Shown one piece after another: positions 3,166 through 55,820 of a stretch of DNA of 64,000 nucleotides. Source of the stretch: Eledone cirrhosa (lineage: Eukaryota); NCBI GenBank assembly GCA_964016885.1, contig OZ024752.1:6262001-6326000 (forward strand), read 5' to 3'. Under the pieces are notes generated by a model, which searched no databases, was not told the origin of the DNA, and worked only from the letters and a program-made list of their open reading frames with translations. Numbering within the stretch: the stretch's first letter is position 1; each line of letters opens with the position of its first letter. A program made the translations under genes and the position numbers.

Positions 3166-3229
3166 AGCCTCTCAGAGTTCTTTCGTCTCGAACCTTCACC
3201 CTGGCTTCCACCCTCTCTCCCACTGAACT

Positions 3230-4020
3230 CCAAAACTTTAGAATTGGTACCTTGAACGTAGGCACAATGAAAGGATGATCAAACGAAAGAAAGTTGATGT
3301 TTGCTGTGTACAAGAGGCTAGATGGAAGAGAGGGTCAGCTAGATTCATTGTGGGTAAAAAACGATGCTACAAATTTTTCTGGGTTGGTAATGACAATGGA
3401 CTGAGTTGTGTTGGAATTATGTTAGCAGAAAAATGAGTAGAGTGAATGACAGAATCATTAAAATTAGACCAGTTCTAAATAGGACAACTGTGTCAATCAT
3501 ATCCACTTATGCACCCCAATCTGGTCTACCAGACATTATAAAAGACAGGTTCTCTGAGTCCCTAAAGCACACCACTTCCCAAATAACCGACAGTGACTAT
3601 ATAATCATTGCTGGTGACTTAAATAGACATGTTGGACAATATTGTGATGGCTATAATGGTGTCCATGGAGGTTATGGGTTTGGTACTAGAAATGAGGAAG
3701 GTTTCAGGATCCTGGAATTCTGTGATGCCAATAACCTAACTATCTGTAACATTAACTTTAAAAAATGAGACAATCACTTGATCACCTATAGATCAGGGGA
3801 GCACACCAGCCAGATATATTTTATCCTTACCAGAAGATGAGACAGAATGTCTGTTGTAAATACATTCCCTTCCTGGTAAGGAATGCACCTCCCAACTTAA
3901 CCTAATAGTTAGCAACCTTATAGTTAGGGCTAGATGATCTCAATGACAGAGGACAACGTTGTGGAGAAGAATGTGGAAGTTGAAGGACTGAAGGACCCCA
4001 CAGCCAGAAACAAATCTAGA
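3230..4020 (+). mobile_element. Decayed RTE-clade LINE, AP endonuclease region
   Basis: Fragments RIGTLNVGTM, VQEARWK, STYAPQSG, IIAGDLNRHVG and GVHGGYGFGTRNEEGFRILEFC are typical of the RTE APE domain; stops and frameshifts present. Confidence 0.9.
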
Positions 4021-4739
4021 GACATGCTAGCATGGAAGATGGGCATTAAACGATGGTGATACTAGATGCTTTCAACAGTAAGGAAGAGCGAGAGGAGGCT
4101 GCATCAACACTGGTTTGGTGCTTTATCAACCCCCAAAAGGATGAAAGGTGAAGTGGACCTCAGCAGACACCCTCTCTACTGTCACATTGTTAACCCAGCA
4201 GGACATCTAGAATGTGACAGATAGGAGAACAAGAGTTACACTTATACTGAACTGGTGCTTTTTTTTATCAACCATGATAATATGAAAAGCAAAATGATTT
4301 TTGGCAGGATTTAAATTCAGAACACAGAAAACTGGAACAAATATCGTAGTGCAGTTTATCTGACTCTCTACGAACTGCCTATTGTCCACCTTGGAGCTAA
4401 ATATAGTTAATAGCAACACATTTACTGACCACATGCTTCTAACTGTAAAGAGATTGCTGTATAATTGATGTTGTAATTATTGAGCATTGTCAAGTGCACC
4501 AAAGTGTGCAGAGATATTTAGTAGTGGGAGAAGGTTGAAGGATGTCAACTGTGAAAATAGTATCACCATTTCATGTTTCTCTACTTGCATGGGTTAGACA
4601 TGTTGGCACGTTCTGAGGCTAGACGGGTTAGGTGACCATGTCTTGCTCATATGTGACATTTTGGGCTTGGTTTCTCTGGCTGGATGCCCTTCCTAATGTC
4701 AACCACATTACAGCTTGTATTGGGAGCATTGTTTTGTGT

Positions 4740-6460: not shown

Positions 6461-6719
6461 AATAGAAAATTGTTTTACGGTTACGAAAAAAATTCTAAAT
6501 AAGCCTACAAGGTTTATTTAGAAAAATTCTAAATAAGCCTACAATAAGCCTACAAATTAAAGACGGTGATCACGGACCACTCTTACTGGTCTGGCGGACC
6601 GGATTGTGGCCTGCAGGCCGGATTGTGGCCCGCGAGTCGCCTGTTGCATGCCCCTGGTCTAAATCTATTCATGAGTTAATGATATTAATATTATTATTAA
6701 TATTTGATTACGGACTTTA

Positions 6720-6843
6720 TGGTCTGAGTTCAAATCCCGCCGAGGTTAACTTTGCCTTTCATCCTTACGGGGTTGATAAAATAAAGTACCAGTAATGTAC
6801 TGTGTAATTGCTGGCCTTGTGCCAAAAGTGGAAACAATTATTA
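6720..6843 (+). mobile_element. SINE family B, 3' part
   Basis: CTGAGTTCAAATCCCGCCGAGGTTAACTTTGCCTTTCATCC...GATAAAATAAAGTACCAGT...GCTGGCCTTGTGCC. Other copies at ~2040-2150(-), 9894-10070(-), 30760-30890(-), 31036-31130(-), 48280-48410(-), 49503-49690(+), 60577-60970. Confidence 0.85.
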
Positions 6844-7151
6844 ATATTTGATTGGTTTACAAGTAAACCCTCATAAAACACCACATGGTAGCTGACAACA
6901 TCATCCCTTTGTTCTAGTGGTAGCTGAGAGAAAACAATTGACAATTGTTTCGGAGTGTTTGCTGCTTATCAAGACTGTATATTCTCTTGTCACTGCTCAC
7001 CACTCAACTGCTACCAATACATAGTATTTTGTACTTTTCAAAAATGTCTTGTTAATGTGGTTTAATCCAAATGTTTAGAGTATCTTTACTAGTGGACAGA
7101 TCATTGTAAACATTCAGGATGTTGAATTAATGTTGTCTTTATTATTTATAG

Positions 7152-7282
7152 GTCTGTACCAAATAACGACCACATTGTTCAACTAAATGAACAGGTTAAC
7201 GAAGTTACACGCTTACTTAAGACCAATGTTGAAAAGATTGTTGAGCATGGAGATAAACTGGATCATCTCCAAACACGCTCAG
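7152..7282 (+). CDS. Synaptobrevin/VAMP-family SNARE, internal coding exon (SNARE motif N-half)
   Basis: tttatag|G...TCAG|gtaaga. Translates SVPNNDHIVQLNEQVNEVTRLLKTNVEKIVEHGDKLDHLQTRS and aligns without gaps to the VAMP motif QVDEV..IM..NV.KV.ER..KL..L. The upstream intron is phase 2; the first exon was not found. Confidence 0.9.
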
Positions 7283-7307
7283 GTAAGAGGTTTGGAAAAC
7301 AGGTGTG

Positions 7308-7379
<72 letters not shown>

Positions 7380-7544
7380 TCATCATTACCGTTTAATATC
7401 CATTTTTTTCACACTAGCATGGGTTAGACGAGTTGTCCTGTTGTGGGATAAGCCAAGTCAGATGACCACGTCCTGCTCATAGAGAACTAATTTTGGTTTG
7501 GTTTCTACAGCTGGATCACCTCCCTAATGCCAACCACAGTTACA

Positions 7545-8127
7545 ATGAATACTGGGTGCTTTTTGTTGTGACACCTACATGACCACTTTACAGTGTGTAC
7601 TGGGTGCTTTTTGTTGTGACACCTACATGACCACTTTACAGTGTGTACTGGGTGCTTTTTGTAGTGACACCTACAAGACCACTTTACAGTGTGGACTGGG
7701 TGCTTGTTGTTGTGACACCTTCACGACCACTTTACAGTGTGTACTGGGTGCTTTGTGTCATGACACCTACATGACCACTTTACAGTGTGGACTGGTTGCT
7801 TGTTGTTGTGACACCTACATGACCACTTTACAGTGTGGACTGGTTGCTTGTTGTTGTGACACCTACACGACCACTTTACAGTGTATACTGGGTGCTTTGT
7901 GTCGTGACACCTACATGACCACTTTACAGTGAATACTAGGTGCTTGTTGTCGTGACACCTACACAACCACTTTACAGTGTGGGCTGGGTGCTTTTTGTCG
8001 TGTCATCTACATGACCACTTTACAGTGTGGACTGGGTGCTTATTGTGACACCTACACAACCACTTTACAGTGTGGGCTGGGTGCTTTTTGTAGTGACACC
8101 TACATGACCTCTTTACAGTGTGGGCTG
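7545..8127. repeat. 48-bp minisatellite (~12 copies) in a VAMP intron, grown from a reverse LINE/SINE tail (7378-7545)
   Basis: Unit GACCACTTTACAGTGTGTACTGGGTGCTTTTTGTTGTGACACCTACAT. Confidence 0.9.
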
Positions 8128-8377
8128 AAAAGTTCATAGGCTGACCAAGATACTCTCATGGAATAACCAAATGAGATTTCTTTTTCAACATAGTCCCTGG
8201 AAATAAATATGCAGTCATTAATAAGAAGAGTTGAAATTAATGCCTGCAAGATTTCACAGCTCTAGCATCACTCCTTCATAATCAGCCTATGAACGTTTTA
8301 GCTGACCTTCATGTATCATACTTCAAATAAAAGTAGTTGAAATAAATATCTAAAACATTTTTTCTCTCTAATTCCAG

Positions 8378-8521
8378 AAAAACTCGAAGACTGTTCAGTC
8401 CATTTCCAGAGAAGTGCAACCAACGTAAGGAGGACGATGTGCTGGAAGAATGCCAAAGCTACTTTAGTTCTTGGATTTGTGATATTTTTGTTGCTTGCAA
8501 TTATTATTGGAATTATTGTAG
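8378..8521 (+). CDS. VAMP-family SNARE, exon with SNARE C-half, juxtamembrane region and TM helix
   Basis: ttccag|AA...GTAG|gtaaag, phase-compatible with the previous exon. Translates (E)KLEDCSVHFQRSATNVRRTMCWKNAKATLVLGFVIFLLLAIIIGIIV; (W/C)WKN plus a hydrophobic TM is the VAMP hallmark. VAMP8/VAMP4-like; orthology unresolved. Confidence 0.92.
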
Positions 8522-8619
8522 GTAAAGTAAACTCTGGTTATTACTTCTTTTACCTCAGCCATTTCATATGTAATCTTGGGTAATGACAGAAAAATACAAT
8601 TGCAAATACAAGCGGCCGA

Positions 8620-9042
8620 AATGGGGTTCCTTTGAAGGGTCATTGGAGTAACGTTACTCATTAGAGTGTGTAACTCGGAGATCAGAGAGTCACTCCAGGT
8701 AGAGCTGATACTCCTCTGAATTGAGAGATCACAGCTCTGATATTACAGGTATGTGGTTAGAATGTCTTGAGAAAGAATCACTGGAGAGTCACTCCAGGTA
8801 GAGGTGCTACTCCTCTGAATTGAGAGATCACAGCTCTGATATTACAGGTATGTGGTTAGAATGTCTTGAGAAAGAATCACTGGAGAGTCACTCCAGGTAG
8901 AGGTGCTACTCCTCTGAATTGAGAGATCACAGCTCTGATATTACAGGTATGTGGTTAGAATGTCTTGAGAAAGAATCACTGGACAGATTTTATGGGCAAA
9001 ATCCCCCAGCTGGAGACCCAGGGATAGAGCCTGAACAAGATG
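8620..9042 (+). mobile_element. Decayed RTE-type LINE C-terminal fragment with an internal 99-bp triplication (8685-8983)
   Basis: Degenerate GVTLL.RV.NSEIRESLQVE...IERSQL.YY..VVRM..ER motif; GAGAGTCACTCC at 8685, 8784, 8883. Same family in reverse at ~22900-23210 and ~50390-50650. Confidence 0.7.
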
Positions 9043-9220
9043 ATTACTGCTCCTTCTCCTTCCACTCTACTCTCACTACTCCTCTCAATTACAACAACTT
9101 AGTGTGACTCCCTCCTCTTCCTTCCACTCTACTCTCACTACTCCTCTCCTAACTCCTTAAGTCACTAGCAACTACTTGATTGTCTCCCTTGTGCTATTGA
9201 CACATTCATTTCAATTCACA

Positions 9221-9353
<133 letters not shown>

Positions 9354-9893
9354 ATCACCAATGTGGCTGGCTTCAGTAATGTAACTTAAGAATTATCAGA
9401 ATTGTGATCCTGCCTCAGTCAACTTTGACTTTCCTTCTTCCGGAGTTTTTGGTTCTGAGTTGAGGTCTGTAGTGGAAGACCAGACTGACATGAGCATGAC
9501 CTAGTAACTGGCCCATGTCAGGGCTTGTGACCATGTGAAATAAGGGGTTGTTGCTATCGACTTTCCTCTTCACTTCAAATTGCTGGCCTTGTGCCTAAAT
9601 CAGAAACCAATTTGTTATTTGAAGGTTGTGAATTGGCAATAATTGGTAGAGAATCGAACTCACAACCTCTCACTTACAAGCCCAATGCTCTAACTACTAA
9701 GCCATGCACCTTCAATAATTACCCGGGCCCTAAACACCCCAGAAATCAATGGAGCTTGCCGGGAAGTTCATATTCTGACTAATATTTCACCTTCAGTTTT
9801 AGTGATATCACACATCAGAGGCTGTGTTAAATGTTTTTAACAAGTTTCATTAGAACCTTTGATGCTGTCAGGGACTATAAACACTGTCTATAC

Positions 9894-10070
9894 TTTTGGC
9901 ACAAGGCCAGCAATTATCCCAGTGCATTACTGGTACTTTATTTTATCGACTCCGTAAGGATGAAAGGCAAAGTTAACCTCGGTGGGATTTGAACTCAGAA
10001 TGGCAAGGGCCGTAACTCTATTCGTCAAAGCATGGCGTCCGACCCTCTACTGATTCTGCTAATCCAGCAG
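9894..10070 (-). mobile_element. SINE family B, near full length, reverse
   Basis: Reverse complement of the 6720-6843 and 49503-49690 family. Confidence 0.85.
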
Positions 10071-10114: not shown

Positions 10115-10200
10115 GAGTGGTGTATAAAAAAGATGACAAATCTCATTCCTCGACTCCAGTACCACACACAACTTCACATTATCAGCCGTTTGTTTCTTAA
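10115..10200 (+). CDS. VAMP-family SNARE, terminal coding exon (end of TM plus luminal tail)
   Basis: Pyrimidine tract ...tctttttcag|GA; phase 1 matches the previous exon. Translates (G)VVYKKDDKSHSSTPVPHTTSHYQPFVS*. Confidence 0.75.
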
Positions 10201-18725: not shown

Positions 18726-21440
18726 AAACCCGACAACCACCTGATCAGGGGAGCATTCTAGTCAGATAGATTTTATCCTCATCAGAGGACGTGACAGATG
18801 GATGGTCGTAAACACAAAAGCCTTCCCTAGTGAGGAATGTACATCCCAACATAGCTTAGTTGTCAGCGACCTCACAATCAGAACTAGACGAACCTGGAAA
18901 CAGAGGCCAACCTGGAGAAGAAAGATCTGGAAGCTGAAAGACCCCTCAGCCAGTAACAGATTTAAAGATATTTTACTCAACGCCTACGACAGTAAAGAAG
19001 AACAGATACAGACATTCAATGTAGAAGAGCACTGGGAGTTCCTAAAAAATAACTTACTAGAGGCGACGGATGGGGTCTGTGGCTGGAGTAAGACCACAAG
19101 CAGGAGGAGAGTGACTTGGTGGTGGAACAATAAGGTAGATGAGGCAGTTAAGGCCAAGAGACAGGCATGGAAAGAATGGAAGAACGGGGGGAGCAGGGTA
19201 CATTATATAGAGACCAAGAGGGAAGCAGAGGATAGAAAATTAAAGCATGTTTTGCAACGCGAGGACCAGAAACAGGAGGTGTTCAAGATTGCGAGGCAGT
19301 GTGTCAGAGAGAATTGTGATGTCATTGGAGAGAAGTGTATCCGGAATGATAAAGGTGAGCTTGCCCTCACAAGTGCTGAGAAGAAAGATGCATGGAAGAG
19401 TCATTATGATAGATTACTAAATGAGGAGAATGCATGGGAAGAAGAGACCCTACCCCAAGTAGACCCTATGGAAGGGCCAGCAGTACAAGTCAGCAGCAGC
19501 ATAGTAAGTAAGGCAATCAAAGATATGAAGATGGGGAAGGCAACCGGTCCATCGGGTATAGCTGGCGAGATGCTGAAGGCATCTGGGTCTGTAGGTCACA
19601 CTATAACCACACGTATTGTTAACCAAGTAGTACTAGAAGGTGTCATACCAAAAGATTGGTGCAGTAGCATCATTGTCAACTGCTACAAAGGTAAAGGCGA
19701 TGCACTAGATAGAGGAAACTATAGAGGTATAAAGCTGATGGACCAGGTCATGAAAGTAACAGAAAGAGTTATAGCACAGTTGATTAGGGGACCGGGTGAA
19801 ACTAGACGAGATGCAATTTGGGTTTGTACCAGGAAGAGGCACCACTGATGCCCTCTTCCTTGTGAGGCAGTTACAGGAAAAGTACCTAGCTAAAAGTAAG
19901 CCACTCTACCTGGCATTCGTCGATCTTGAGAAAGCCTTTGGCAGAGTTCCACGTGCTGTAATCTGGTGGGCTCTTAGAAAACTAGGAGTAGATGAATGGC
20001 TTGTGAAAGCGGTACAAGCCATGTATAGGGGAGCAGTCAGCAAAGTTAGGATTAGCAATGAGTATAGCGAGGAATTTAGCGTAGAGGTTGGGGTCCACCA
20101 GGGCTCTGTTCTTAGCCCCCCCCCCCCCTGTTCATCATAGTCCTGCAGGCAATAACGGAGGAGTTTAAGACCGGATGCCCATGGGAACTCCTGTATTCCT
20201 GTATGCTGATGACCTCGCACTTGTAGCTGAATCTATGGTAGAACTAGAGAAGAAATTCCAAACTTGGAAGCAGGGACTAGAAAGAAAGGGTCTCAAAGTC
20301 AACATGACAAAGACTAACGTCCTTGTAAGTAGACGAGAAGACAGAACCCAGATCCCCTCAGGGAAATGGCCTTGCTCAGTAGGTAGGAACTCCATTCTCT
20401 ACCCCAAATGCAAACAATGGGTACACAAGAGATGTAGCGGGATCTCAGGAGGCTTAATTAAGAATGTAGGATTCACATGCAGCAGCAAGCAGCAAACAGC
20501 CACAGGAAACAAGTACCACCAATCTCTGGGCGGGCTCTGTAGAAACAATAGACAGCTTCTGCTACCTAGGTGACCGAATTAGCAGCGGAGGTGGGTGTTC
20601 AGAAAGTACAATAACTAGGGTAAGAACGGGATGGAAGAAGTTTAGGGAACTACTACCACTGCTAGCTGCAAAAGGCTTCTCCCTCAAAATGAAAGGCAGA
20701 CTGTATGATGCGTGTATCCGAACAGCGATGTTGCATGGTAGTGAGACCTGGGCGCTGAAGGTGGAAGACTTGCGTAGATTAGAGAGAAACGAAGCCTGCA
20801 TGCTCCGATGGATGTGTAACAGTAATATACGCGAACGATAAAGCATAAATGAATTGAGAGAGAGACTGAGCATAAGAGGAATCAAATGCTGTGTGCAGGA
20901 GAGGCGGTTGTGTTGGTATGGACATGTGATGCGTATGAAGGATGACAGCTGCATAAAAAGGTGCAGAGCACTAGAAGTCGATGGAAACCGCGGAGTGGGG
21001 AGACCCAAGATGACCTGGGATGAGGTGATAAAAGCCGACCTTACCCAATTACACCTCTCAAAGGCGATGACACACGACCATGACCACTGGCGTCACGCAG
21101 TAATACAGAGTACCCGACCTCCCATGGGTACAAGCTGAAGCATATAGACAATATGCCCCCACACCCTCCACTGCAAGGTGGTCGTGGAGGTGCCACGGCA
21201 AAAAAGCCCACACTGTAAAGTGGATGTGTAGGCGCCACGAGAAAGCGCCCAGCACTCACTGTAAATGAGGTTGGTGTTAGGAAGGGCATCCAGCTGTAGA
21301 AATCAAGCCAGAATCAGTTCCTGTATGAGCAAGGCATGGTCAGCCGACCAGACACTGCCCACAACAGGAAAACCCGTCTAACCCATGCTAGCGTGGAAGA
21401 ACGGACGTAAAACGGTGATGATGAGGATGATGATGATGAT
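18726..21440 (+). mobile_element. 5'-truncated RTE-clade LINE (end of endonuclease, reverse transcriptase, 3' UTR, (GAT)n tail), frameshifted
   Basis: Motifs TWWWN, GKATGPSGI, KGKGDALDRGNYRGIKL, QFGFVPGRGTTDA, AFVDLEKAF, GVHQGSVLSP, LYADDL and RLCWYGHVMRM...GRPKMTW across the ORFs in 18802-21138. Confidence 0.96.
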
Positions 21441-53939: not shown

Positions 53940-55820
53940 CTCTATCACTGAATCTGCAAACCATGAAGTGATTGCCATTGGTGTACCAGAAGACATAGTT
54001 GATCTTCAGGCATTTGCTGCCAGTTCATCCAAAGACTTGGGCTGTGCTCCCGCAAAGGGTGCTCTACGCCTTGGCCGACCAGGCCCGAAACCCAGGCTAA
54101 TTAGACTGTCGTTTTCAAACTCAACTGAGGCACGTTCATACCTTGTAGCCTCTGATAAAGCTAGGCGTGAAAGTCGGATTGCTTTCCGAACACGCCCTGG
54201 TCTTCCACCTGATGTCTGCCCAAAGTTGCGTGCTGCAGCTTCTTTAAACCGCAGCTTGGCAGAACATGAAAGCTTCAGCCTACGAGATGATGGGCAGATA
54301 TGGAAGTTTGTTAAGGCTGGCGAAACATGGAAAGGAGACACCAGCTGGTCTGAAAACACTGTACCCACAACAACTGACAATAAAGAAACTGAAAAAACTC
54401 AGGGAAACTAAATCAGAACAACCTGCCATCCCTTGCACATAATCATAGACTGGAATCAAGGTACAAATTGTTGTCCTTGAATTCACATAGTCTATGCAAT
54501 AAGATACATCTTTTTGACTCCTACATCAAAAGTATCAACCCTGACTTCATTACAGTCACGGAAACTTGGGCACATCCCTTACTCTATGATGGGGTTTTCA
54601 GCATGACTGGCTACAACCTGTTTCGTAAACACCGCATTAATCGTGGTGGTGGTGGTGTAATAGTCTACGTTCGGTCAAATCTGTCGGCAATTCCTTGTGT
54701 TGATTTGAACCAATCACAGCAGGAAGTTTTTTTCTACAATATACGTATAACACTGCTACTTGGAGTCGTTTACCGTCCCCCAAATTACCATCAGGACACT
54801 CAGCTTTATGATATCCTCAGAGCTGCTGCCAGGAAGACAGCCACTTATGTTTTCATTGCAGGAGACTTCAATCACCCTGAGATTGACTGGGAAACCTTTC
54901 GTTGGCCGCCAAGTGCAAATGACTTCCTTGAGCTGGTGCTGGACTCGAGTTGGTCCCAGGTGGTCACCTCCCCAGCAAGAGGTGACAACACTTTGGACCT
55001 ACTCTTCACCACTACTCCTGAAACGGTCATTAGTGTTACTGCTGAGGAACCTTTAGGTGACTCTGATCATGCTATGATCATTGCCAATCTATCCCTCATG
55101 GGCAGTAACAAGAACCACAACCATCTCCAAACTGCTCACTTTGACTGGAATAAAGCAGACTGGAACTGTTACTGCACCGAGTTGCAACGGCCAAACTGGC
55201 TTGAGTTCTACGACTCTGGAGATGTCAACACTGTACTCCAGAACATCCTGAGCTCAATATGGACAGCATGTGCAGCATTGGGGCCACGTAAGCGGAAAAA
55301 ACATCCCAAAAGCGCAATTTGGGAGACTGCAGCAGTCTGTCTTGCCAGAAAAGAACGGCGCAATGCTGAACGTGAGTACAAACTTCACAAATCAGACATT
55401 AATAGGAAGAGGCGAAATAGATCGTCCAACCACCTCAAACAGGTGACAAAAAAAGGCAGTGCTCCAATTTGAGCAGCGCATAGCAACCAGCCCTGACAGT
55501 GAGGTGTTCTGGAAGTATGTTCACTCAAAGCAGAGGCCTCACTCTCCAGTTGGTCCTCTTCGCAATTCCCACACAAGCCAGGTTACTGACGACCCCAAGG
55601 AATGCGCAGAGCTCATTGCTGAATGTTATGCAGGCATTTTCACTATTGAAGAGCAGAGTGTACCATCTCCACCACCTATGACACCGGACTCTATTACAAC
55701 CATGGAATTTACACCTGCAATGCTGCGACGTCACCTAAAAAATAAACGCAACCATGCCTCTCCTGGTCTTGATGGTGTTACGTACCTGCTTCTTAAACGT
55801 GGTGGGTACTTCCTTCTGGG
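53940..55820 (+). mobile_element. CR1-group LINE: probable ORF1 C-terminus, ORF2 AP endonuclease and linker; truncated at the start of the RT
   Basis: ORF 54468-55472 has ITVTETW, GGGVIVYV, GVVYRPP, IAGDFNHPEIDW, LDLLFT, LGDSDH and NKADW. After a frameshift it continues FWKYV...SPGLDGV..LLLK. ORF 53968-54411 has RLGRP..KPRLI, as in CR1-type ORF1. Confidence 0.9.

Follow-up and report, generated by a model that had tools for sequence, protein, structure and literature searches.

The question raised by this locus is whether an octopod gene of the R-SNARE class carries histidine in place of the arginine at the ionic zero layer and, if so, whether this residue serves as a switch. The window (the whole stretch of 64,000 nucleotides of Eledone cirrhosa DNA that was analysed) contains the codon CAT at positions 7246–7248 of the forward strand, and the earlier note had read it as an encoded His lying one A-to-I edit away from Arg in a gene that otherwise looked intact. 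If the central charge were switchable, whether because the His takes up a proton or because ADAR restores Arg in particular tissues, this SNARE would be a naturally occurring control of fusion strength and would put the purpose of the 3Q:1R layer to a natural test. The strong conservation of this layer, although its mutants are often mild, is treated as an open question in the accessible part of PMC2600744. Should the His be no more than tolerated, the finding would add a minor detail to what is known of a molluscan brevin that has received little study. We conclude that the locus is a real, rare, lineage-restricted and seemingly unreported variant of a known family; a switch is possible but unsupported, and we regard a switchable central charge as improbable. 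A literature search of partial coverage, with subscription papers mostly outside it, found no prior report of this gene or of any R-class SNARE with His at the zero layer.

Results

The zero-layer codon and the structure of the gene

The CAT codon was read in the window sequence and lies in a coding exon at 7152–7282 of the forward strand, which is preceded by AG and followed by GT. The translation of this exon (...NVEKIVEHGDKL...) includes the zero-layer His and covers SNARE layers -7 to +3. The next coding exon (8378–8521, forward strand) encodes layers +4 to +8, a basic, Cys-containing juxtamembrane stretch and a transmembrane segment seen as a hydrophobic stretch after the basic linker. 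The last coding exon (10115–10200, forward strand) adds a Ser/Thr/Pro/His-rich tail past the membrane segment and the TAA stop. With their AG/GT ends, the three exons join into an open frame of 119 codons ending with TAA. When the orthologue of Octopus bimaculoides was aligned with VAMP4, VAMP2 and VAMP8 from the PDB, no gaps were needed and the His stood opposite their zero-layer Arg. The codon reading and this alignment bear out the claim of a His (CAT) at the zero layer of an R-SNARE gene.

The accompanying claim that the rest of the gene is intact holds only for the three exons, with their open frame and splice ends. As the first base of exon 7152–7282 is codon position 3 and no in-frame Met lies just 5' of it, an upstream exon is required. 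It was not found by a narrow scan of the 37 kb upstream, a stretch that includes a run of 200 N. Five upstream candidates with AT directly before GT were considered, and none of them was convincing. We infer that an upstream intron probably divides the start codon between AT and G, in which case the N-terminus would resemble those of the relatives P0006 and P0009; this placement follows in part the structure of vertebrate VAMP genes. Residues 1–9 of the O. bimaculoides model XP_014790153.1 (P0007) parallel the translated intron end at 7126–7152 of the window. Because these nine residues mirror the translated intron of the window gene, the N-terminus of that model is probably a mis-prediction.

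Exon 7152–7282 has a single match across the 3.0-Gb genome, which rules out a second, Arg-bearing copy of the gene. Three sequencing contig runs over 6500–9200 were dominated by repeats, with an exon depth of approximately 2–4, and position 7247 was absent among the 40 rows listed (there are 278 further ones). Elsewhere in the window, the regions 18745–19848, 54393–55472 and approximately 3200–4100 hold fragments that by eye resemble LINE endonuclease or reverse-transcriptase genes, and the remaining long open reading frames downstream derive largely from tandem or simple repeats.

The His gene belongs to the synaptobrevin family as an extra brevin

The Pfam profile PF00957 (curated cut-off of 26.4 bits) matched exons 7152–7282 and 8378–8521 at 32.5 and 46.7 bits, respectively, and the O. 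bimaculoides protein at 93.6 bits. An atlas search confirmed the synaptobrevin family as well. The residues of the 16-layer SNARE motif are in register in the gapless alignments, and the single-chain model of the orthologue has a continuous helix at the membrane segment, although at low confidence (mean pLDDT of 62, pTM of 0.24). Under the literal definition, which calls for Arg at the zero layer, the protein is not an R-SNARE, the residue being His; we therefore file it, on sequence grounds, as R-class by descent. The protein may assemble with Qa, Qb and Qc helices into a fusogenic bundle, although a predicted complex of this kind would follow already from likeness to solved structures. As regards a longin domain, the relatives are approximately 100–146 aa long and PF00957 is the only profile matched by the six proteins that were scanned, the window gene entering this comparison without its start exon.

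The gene is not the orthologue of VAMP2, VAMP4 or VAMP8. These are matched better by other genes of the genome, which has distinct genes closer to synaptobrevin (C28), VAMP4 (C3) and VAMP8/VAMP4-like brevins (C19), and in the tree the window gene falls among molluscan proteins (83/81). The VAMP4 and VAMP8 labels come from PDB matches, VAMP4 and VAMP8 being tied for the C19 gene. The other R-class genes are ones that we take from their motifs to be synaptobrevin-, Ykt6-, Sec22- and tomosyn-like. All six of the synaptobrevin-, VAMP4-, VAMP8-, Ykt6-, Sec22- and tomosyn-like genes, in which the zero-layer exon is visible, have Arg at this position, encoded by CGT in three of them; only a downstream exon was seen for a VAMP7-like gene. 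Since the genome has separate synaptobrevin-, VAMP4- and VAMP8-like genes, the His gene is, judged by its sequence, an extra molluscan brevin paralogue and not the main synaptic one.

The zero-layer histidine is shared by two octopods

The O. bimaculoides protein XP_014790153.1 and its isoform X2 carry the same His, with 83% identity over 115 columns, a similarity that also speaks for an octopod origin of the window. Because this other species has it too, the CAT codon is hardly conceivable as an assembly error or a private variant. The sequence cluster of the His protein has two members and holds no transcript-derived octopus protein. Arg is found at the zero layer of the Argonauta hians orthologue (GAB1604895.1) and of the other close relatives.

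In a profile search there were 5720 hits among 1.84 billion representatives, and the best 150 of these hits were examined. Their 159 aligned stretches have Arg at the zero layer in 153 cases, a gap in two, and His, Ser, Lys and Asn in one each; the only His among the 157 stretches with a residue is that of the octopus query member. The proteins with Ser, Lys or Asn (P0111, P0121 and P0139, the last from Rigifila ramosa) are synaptobrevin-like. Synaptobrevins without the Arg also occur in ciliates, on which we found no paper.

A tree was built from 47 rows: the window protein, four close relatives, P0010, three paralogues from the genome and 38 top hits. Hits of at least 200 aa, P0014, P0016, P0034 and everything below P0059 were left out, and vertebrate reference rows are absent. 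The two His rows pair with support of 89/58, short of the threshold for a star, and the clade that joins them with Argonauta is starred (99/92). This clade lies within an 18-row group (83/81, unstarred) that includes bivalve and gastropod proteins, namely those of Solemya (KAL5007679.1), Sinanodonta (KAL3842063.1), Haliotis (XP_067654990.1), Lottia (XP_009053857.1) and Candidula (CAG5127945.1). When the group was aligned together with seven cluster members, omitting short fragments and two duplicates, Arg was present in 23 of the 25 rows, some of which are near-copies. The comparison of molluscan orthologues at this column, proposed in the earlier note as a check, thus gave His in both octopods and Arg in Argonauta, the bivalves and the gastropods. 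Arg is likely to be the ancestral state. As the Argonauta, bivalve and gastropod relatives have Arg, the His most likely arose once, on the branch to the two octopods, within a thin sampling of cephalopods. It should be noted that the database labels of the molluscan short brevins (P0015, P0017–P0022 and P0024) are inconsistent, ranging over VAMP4-like, VAMP8-like, synaptobrevin-1-like and hypothetical. No functional study of the molluscan extra brevins was found.

The SNARE motif stayed constrained after the change

The two His species are identical at 55 of 59 motif positions and at all 16 layer residues, compared with 16 of 28 positions in the tail (Fisher p of 1e-4 for motif versus tail). 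When the last eight residues of the tail are set aside, 14 of 20 positions are identical and the difference has a p of 0.014; both tail comparisons rely on the predicted O. bimaculoides gene model. The four motif differences all fall outside the 16 layers, which is not significant alone (p of 0.27), and the nine differences in the motif and the membrane segment together are conservative. Against the Arg-bearing Argonauta protein, the motif of the His octopods is identical at 49 of 59 positions, and Val/Leu at layer +1 is the only other layer difference. These comparisons indicate that the motif stayed constrained after the His had appeared.

Editing of A7247

The base that editing would change is A7247. 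That the codon is one A-to-I edit away from Arg is true, but it is uninformative, as every His codon qualifies: all seven in the 119-codon frame are one A>G change from Arg. Any one-step change from Arg to His is a G>A at codon position 2, so the one-edit distance is automatic. Altogether, 81 of the 117 A's in the frame would recode if edited. Meanwhile, because Arg is likely ancestral, A7247 is formally a potential restorative editing site: the genome has A, and the edited codon would give the residue found in Argonauta and the other molluscs. The C-A-U context of the site is not favoured by ADAR.

Folding of the surrounding RNA predicted a weak local hairpin at 7241–7283 of the forward strand, consisting of 6 bp, an asymmetric loop with A7247 unpaired, and 7 bp. 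It does not exceed chance (z of -0.90; 34 of 200 shuffles as good). The best distant partner of the site reached -26.5 kcal/mol versus -26.7 ± 2.2 kcal/mol for shuffled queries (n = 20). The pairing probability of A7247 was 0.04–0.12 in three folds of 101–401 nt and 0.72 in an 801-nt fold. Thus, neither locally nor at a distance was a double-stranded partner including A7247 found beyond the level of shuffles, by a kind of prediction that some genuine ADAR substrates escape. A (TA)n hairpin lies 60–130 nt downstream of the site and excludes it. The two main exons are enclosed by two inverted copies of a dispersed repeat that is extremely abundant: the upstream arm at 6723–6843, which excludes A7247, and the downstream arm at 9878–9999, whose complementarity is 95% over 80 nt and 85% over another 39 nt. 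An arrangement of this kind can give rise to dsRNA or promote the circularisation of exons.

Among potential restorative sites of O. bimaculoides, 0.6–0.95% are edited per neural tissue and 0.03–0.23% elsewhere, and approximately 90% of the edited ones show 0–20% editing (PMC6881472 supplement 1, apparently in its uncorrected version). The correction lowers the overall restorative incidence (PMC8249491, accessible part). No VAMP or synaptobrevin entry was found in the editing tables of the readable supplements of PMC8382921 and PMC9068888.

Possible Q-SNARE partners

A search of the genome with PF05739 gave 17 matches, four of them over the cut-off. As introns split the layer, few Q-SNARE zero layers were visible, and all of these were Gln. 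Two similar loci (L038 at C4:296642026-296642184 and L040 at C3:92511110-92511262) are presumably syntaxin-5-like. L038 lies within an open frame of 322 aa, looks intronless and is possibly a retrocopy.

Discussion

We consider it probable that the window gene is a working vesicle SNARE with a genomically encoded His, whose bundle is somewhat weaker and is under neither editing nor pH control, the residue being tolerated in a spare paralogue. A single G>A transition of the CpG type (CGT to CAT) would have occurred on the branch to these octopods, and the product may have been tolerated because the gene is an extra paralogue. Zippering would proceed through the unchanged hydrophobic layers. A mostly neutral imidazole could replace the guanidinium by hydrogen bonding to some of the three Gln carbonyls, with fewer bonds and a less stable bundle as the outcome. 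The sequence itself shows the His together with hydrophobic layers that have not changed and a membrane segment, and Arg is kept by all six further R-class genes of this genome whose zero-layer exon was seen. The accessible parts of several studies support partial tolerance: VAMP2 R56L rescues spontaneous release with minor changes of affinity while lowering evoked release probability (PMC12595502), R56A lowers zippering energy (PMC4744192), the zero layer of yeast Sso1 tolerates all but three residues in vegetative growth (PMC2600744), and a natural His stands at the zero layer of the fungal Qc-SNARE Syn8 (PMC11204939). Against tolerance, the position is not generally free, because 153 of 157 stretches from the best 150 of 5720 hits have Arg and no other has His. 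In addition, exocytosis is slower with R56L, a variant found in human disease (PMC10102358, accessible part), and any change of Sso1 Q224 impairs yeast sporulation (PMC2600744, accessible part).

That two diverged species have both kept the His could point to selection rather than just tolerance, and two species do not suffice to tell these apart. A fixed tuning that weakens or retargets the complex in an octopod secretory pathway, through other Q-SNARE partners, faster NSF disassembly or competition by a low-efficiency SNARE, would fit a His kept at so conserved a site while the tails came to differ at 12 of 28 positions, and in yeast the specificity of SNAREs can be determined by their binding energy (PMC2600744, accessible part). 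Just two His-bearing species were available, no layer change accompanies it except +1 Val/Leu relative to Argonauta, and no compensating Q-SNARE appeared among the few zero layers visible in a very incomplete check, so we hold tuning to be unlikely. Relaxed selection on a decaying or barely expressed gene is less probable still. The start exon missing from the narrow upstream scan, an O. bimaculoides model that seems to open with translated intron and the long cephalopod branches in the family tree are what decay would predict; the frame, however, has no stop or frameshift, its splice sites are canonical, the changes in motif and membrane segment are all conservative, and the motif is far more conserved than the tail.

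In a pH-titratable SNARE, a protonated His would mimic Arg, and acidification of the cytosol would stabilise the bundle and promote fusion. The chemistry of His and its retention in two species agree with this, but the SNARE motif is cytosolic, where pH moves little and within a narrow range, a buried His tends to remain neutral with a lowered pKa, and the few Q-SNARE exons inspected, in an incomplete check, revealed no partner with an acidic zero layer. We thus rate a pH switch as very unlikely. Editing of A7247 in some tissues, yielding a mixture of His and restored Arg, is at least as doubtful. It would be in keeping with the likely ancestral Arg, the flanking inverted repeats, the nearby (TA)n hairpin and the pairing seen in the widest fold. 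In the accessible parts of the literature, coleoid restorative sites are enriched for strongly edited ones (PMC8382921, PMC8249491), and a position where such a conserved residue has been lost is one that the harm-permitting model would expect (PMC6881472). On the other side stand the edited share of less than 1% of potential restorative sites per tissue (PMC6881472 supplement 1, apparently uncorrected), the chance-level local fold and complementary elements and the low pairing in the three shorter folds. The sequence context of the site, unfavoured by ADAR, also speaks against editing.

A tolerated substitution thus remains the reading that we prefer. The Argonauta protein with Arg and the two octopod proteins with His form a natural pair of orthologues, with a motif identity of 49/59, for a clean comparison of the zero-layer residue.

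Compared with known systems, the window gene shares with VAMP2, VAMP4 and VAMP8 (PDB 2kog, 2nps and 7bv6) the layer register, a basic/Trp juxtamembrane stretch and one membrane segment, and it differs from them by its zero-layer His, where they have Arg, and by a tail past the membrane. With the molluscan extra brevins of Argonauta, Solemya, Sinanodonta, Haliotis, Lottia and Candidula it has in common a short N-terminus, a motif before layer 0 and, for most of them, the juxtamembrane Cys; the tree groups them with moderate support, and all of them, unlike the window gene, have Arg. Like the restoratively recoded A-to-I sites of coleoids, it has a genomic A where the residue of the inferred ancestor would be the edited one, but no duplex above chance is predicted at the site. 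Natural layer-0 residues other than Gln or Arg are also known from the fungal proteins Syn8 (His), Sft1 (Asp) and Bet1 (Ser), according to the accessible part of PMC11204939. These three, however, are Qc-SNAREs whose bundles keep the Arg, whereas the bundle of the window gene would be without a fixed positive charge.
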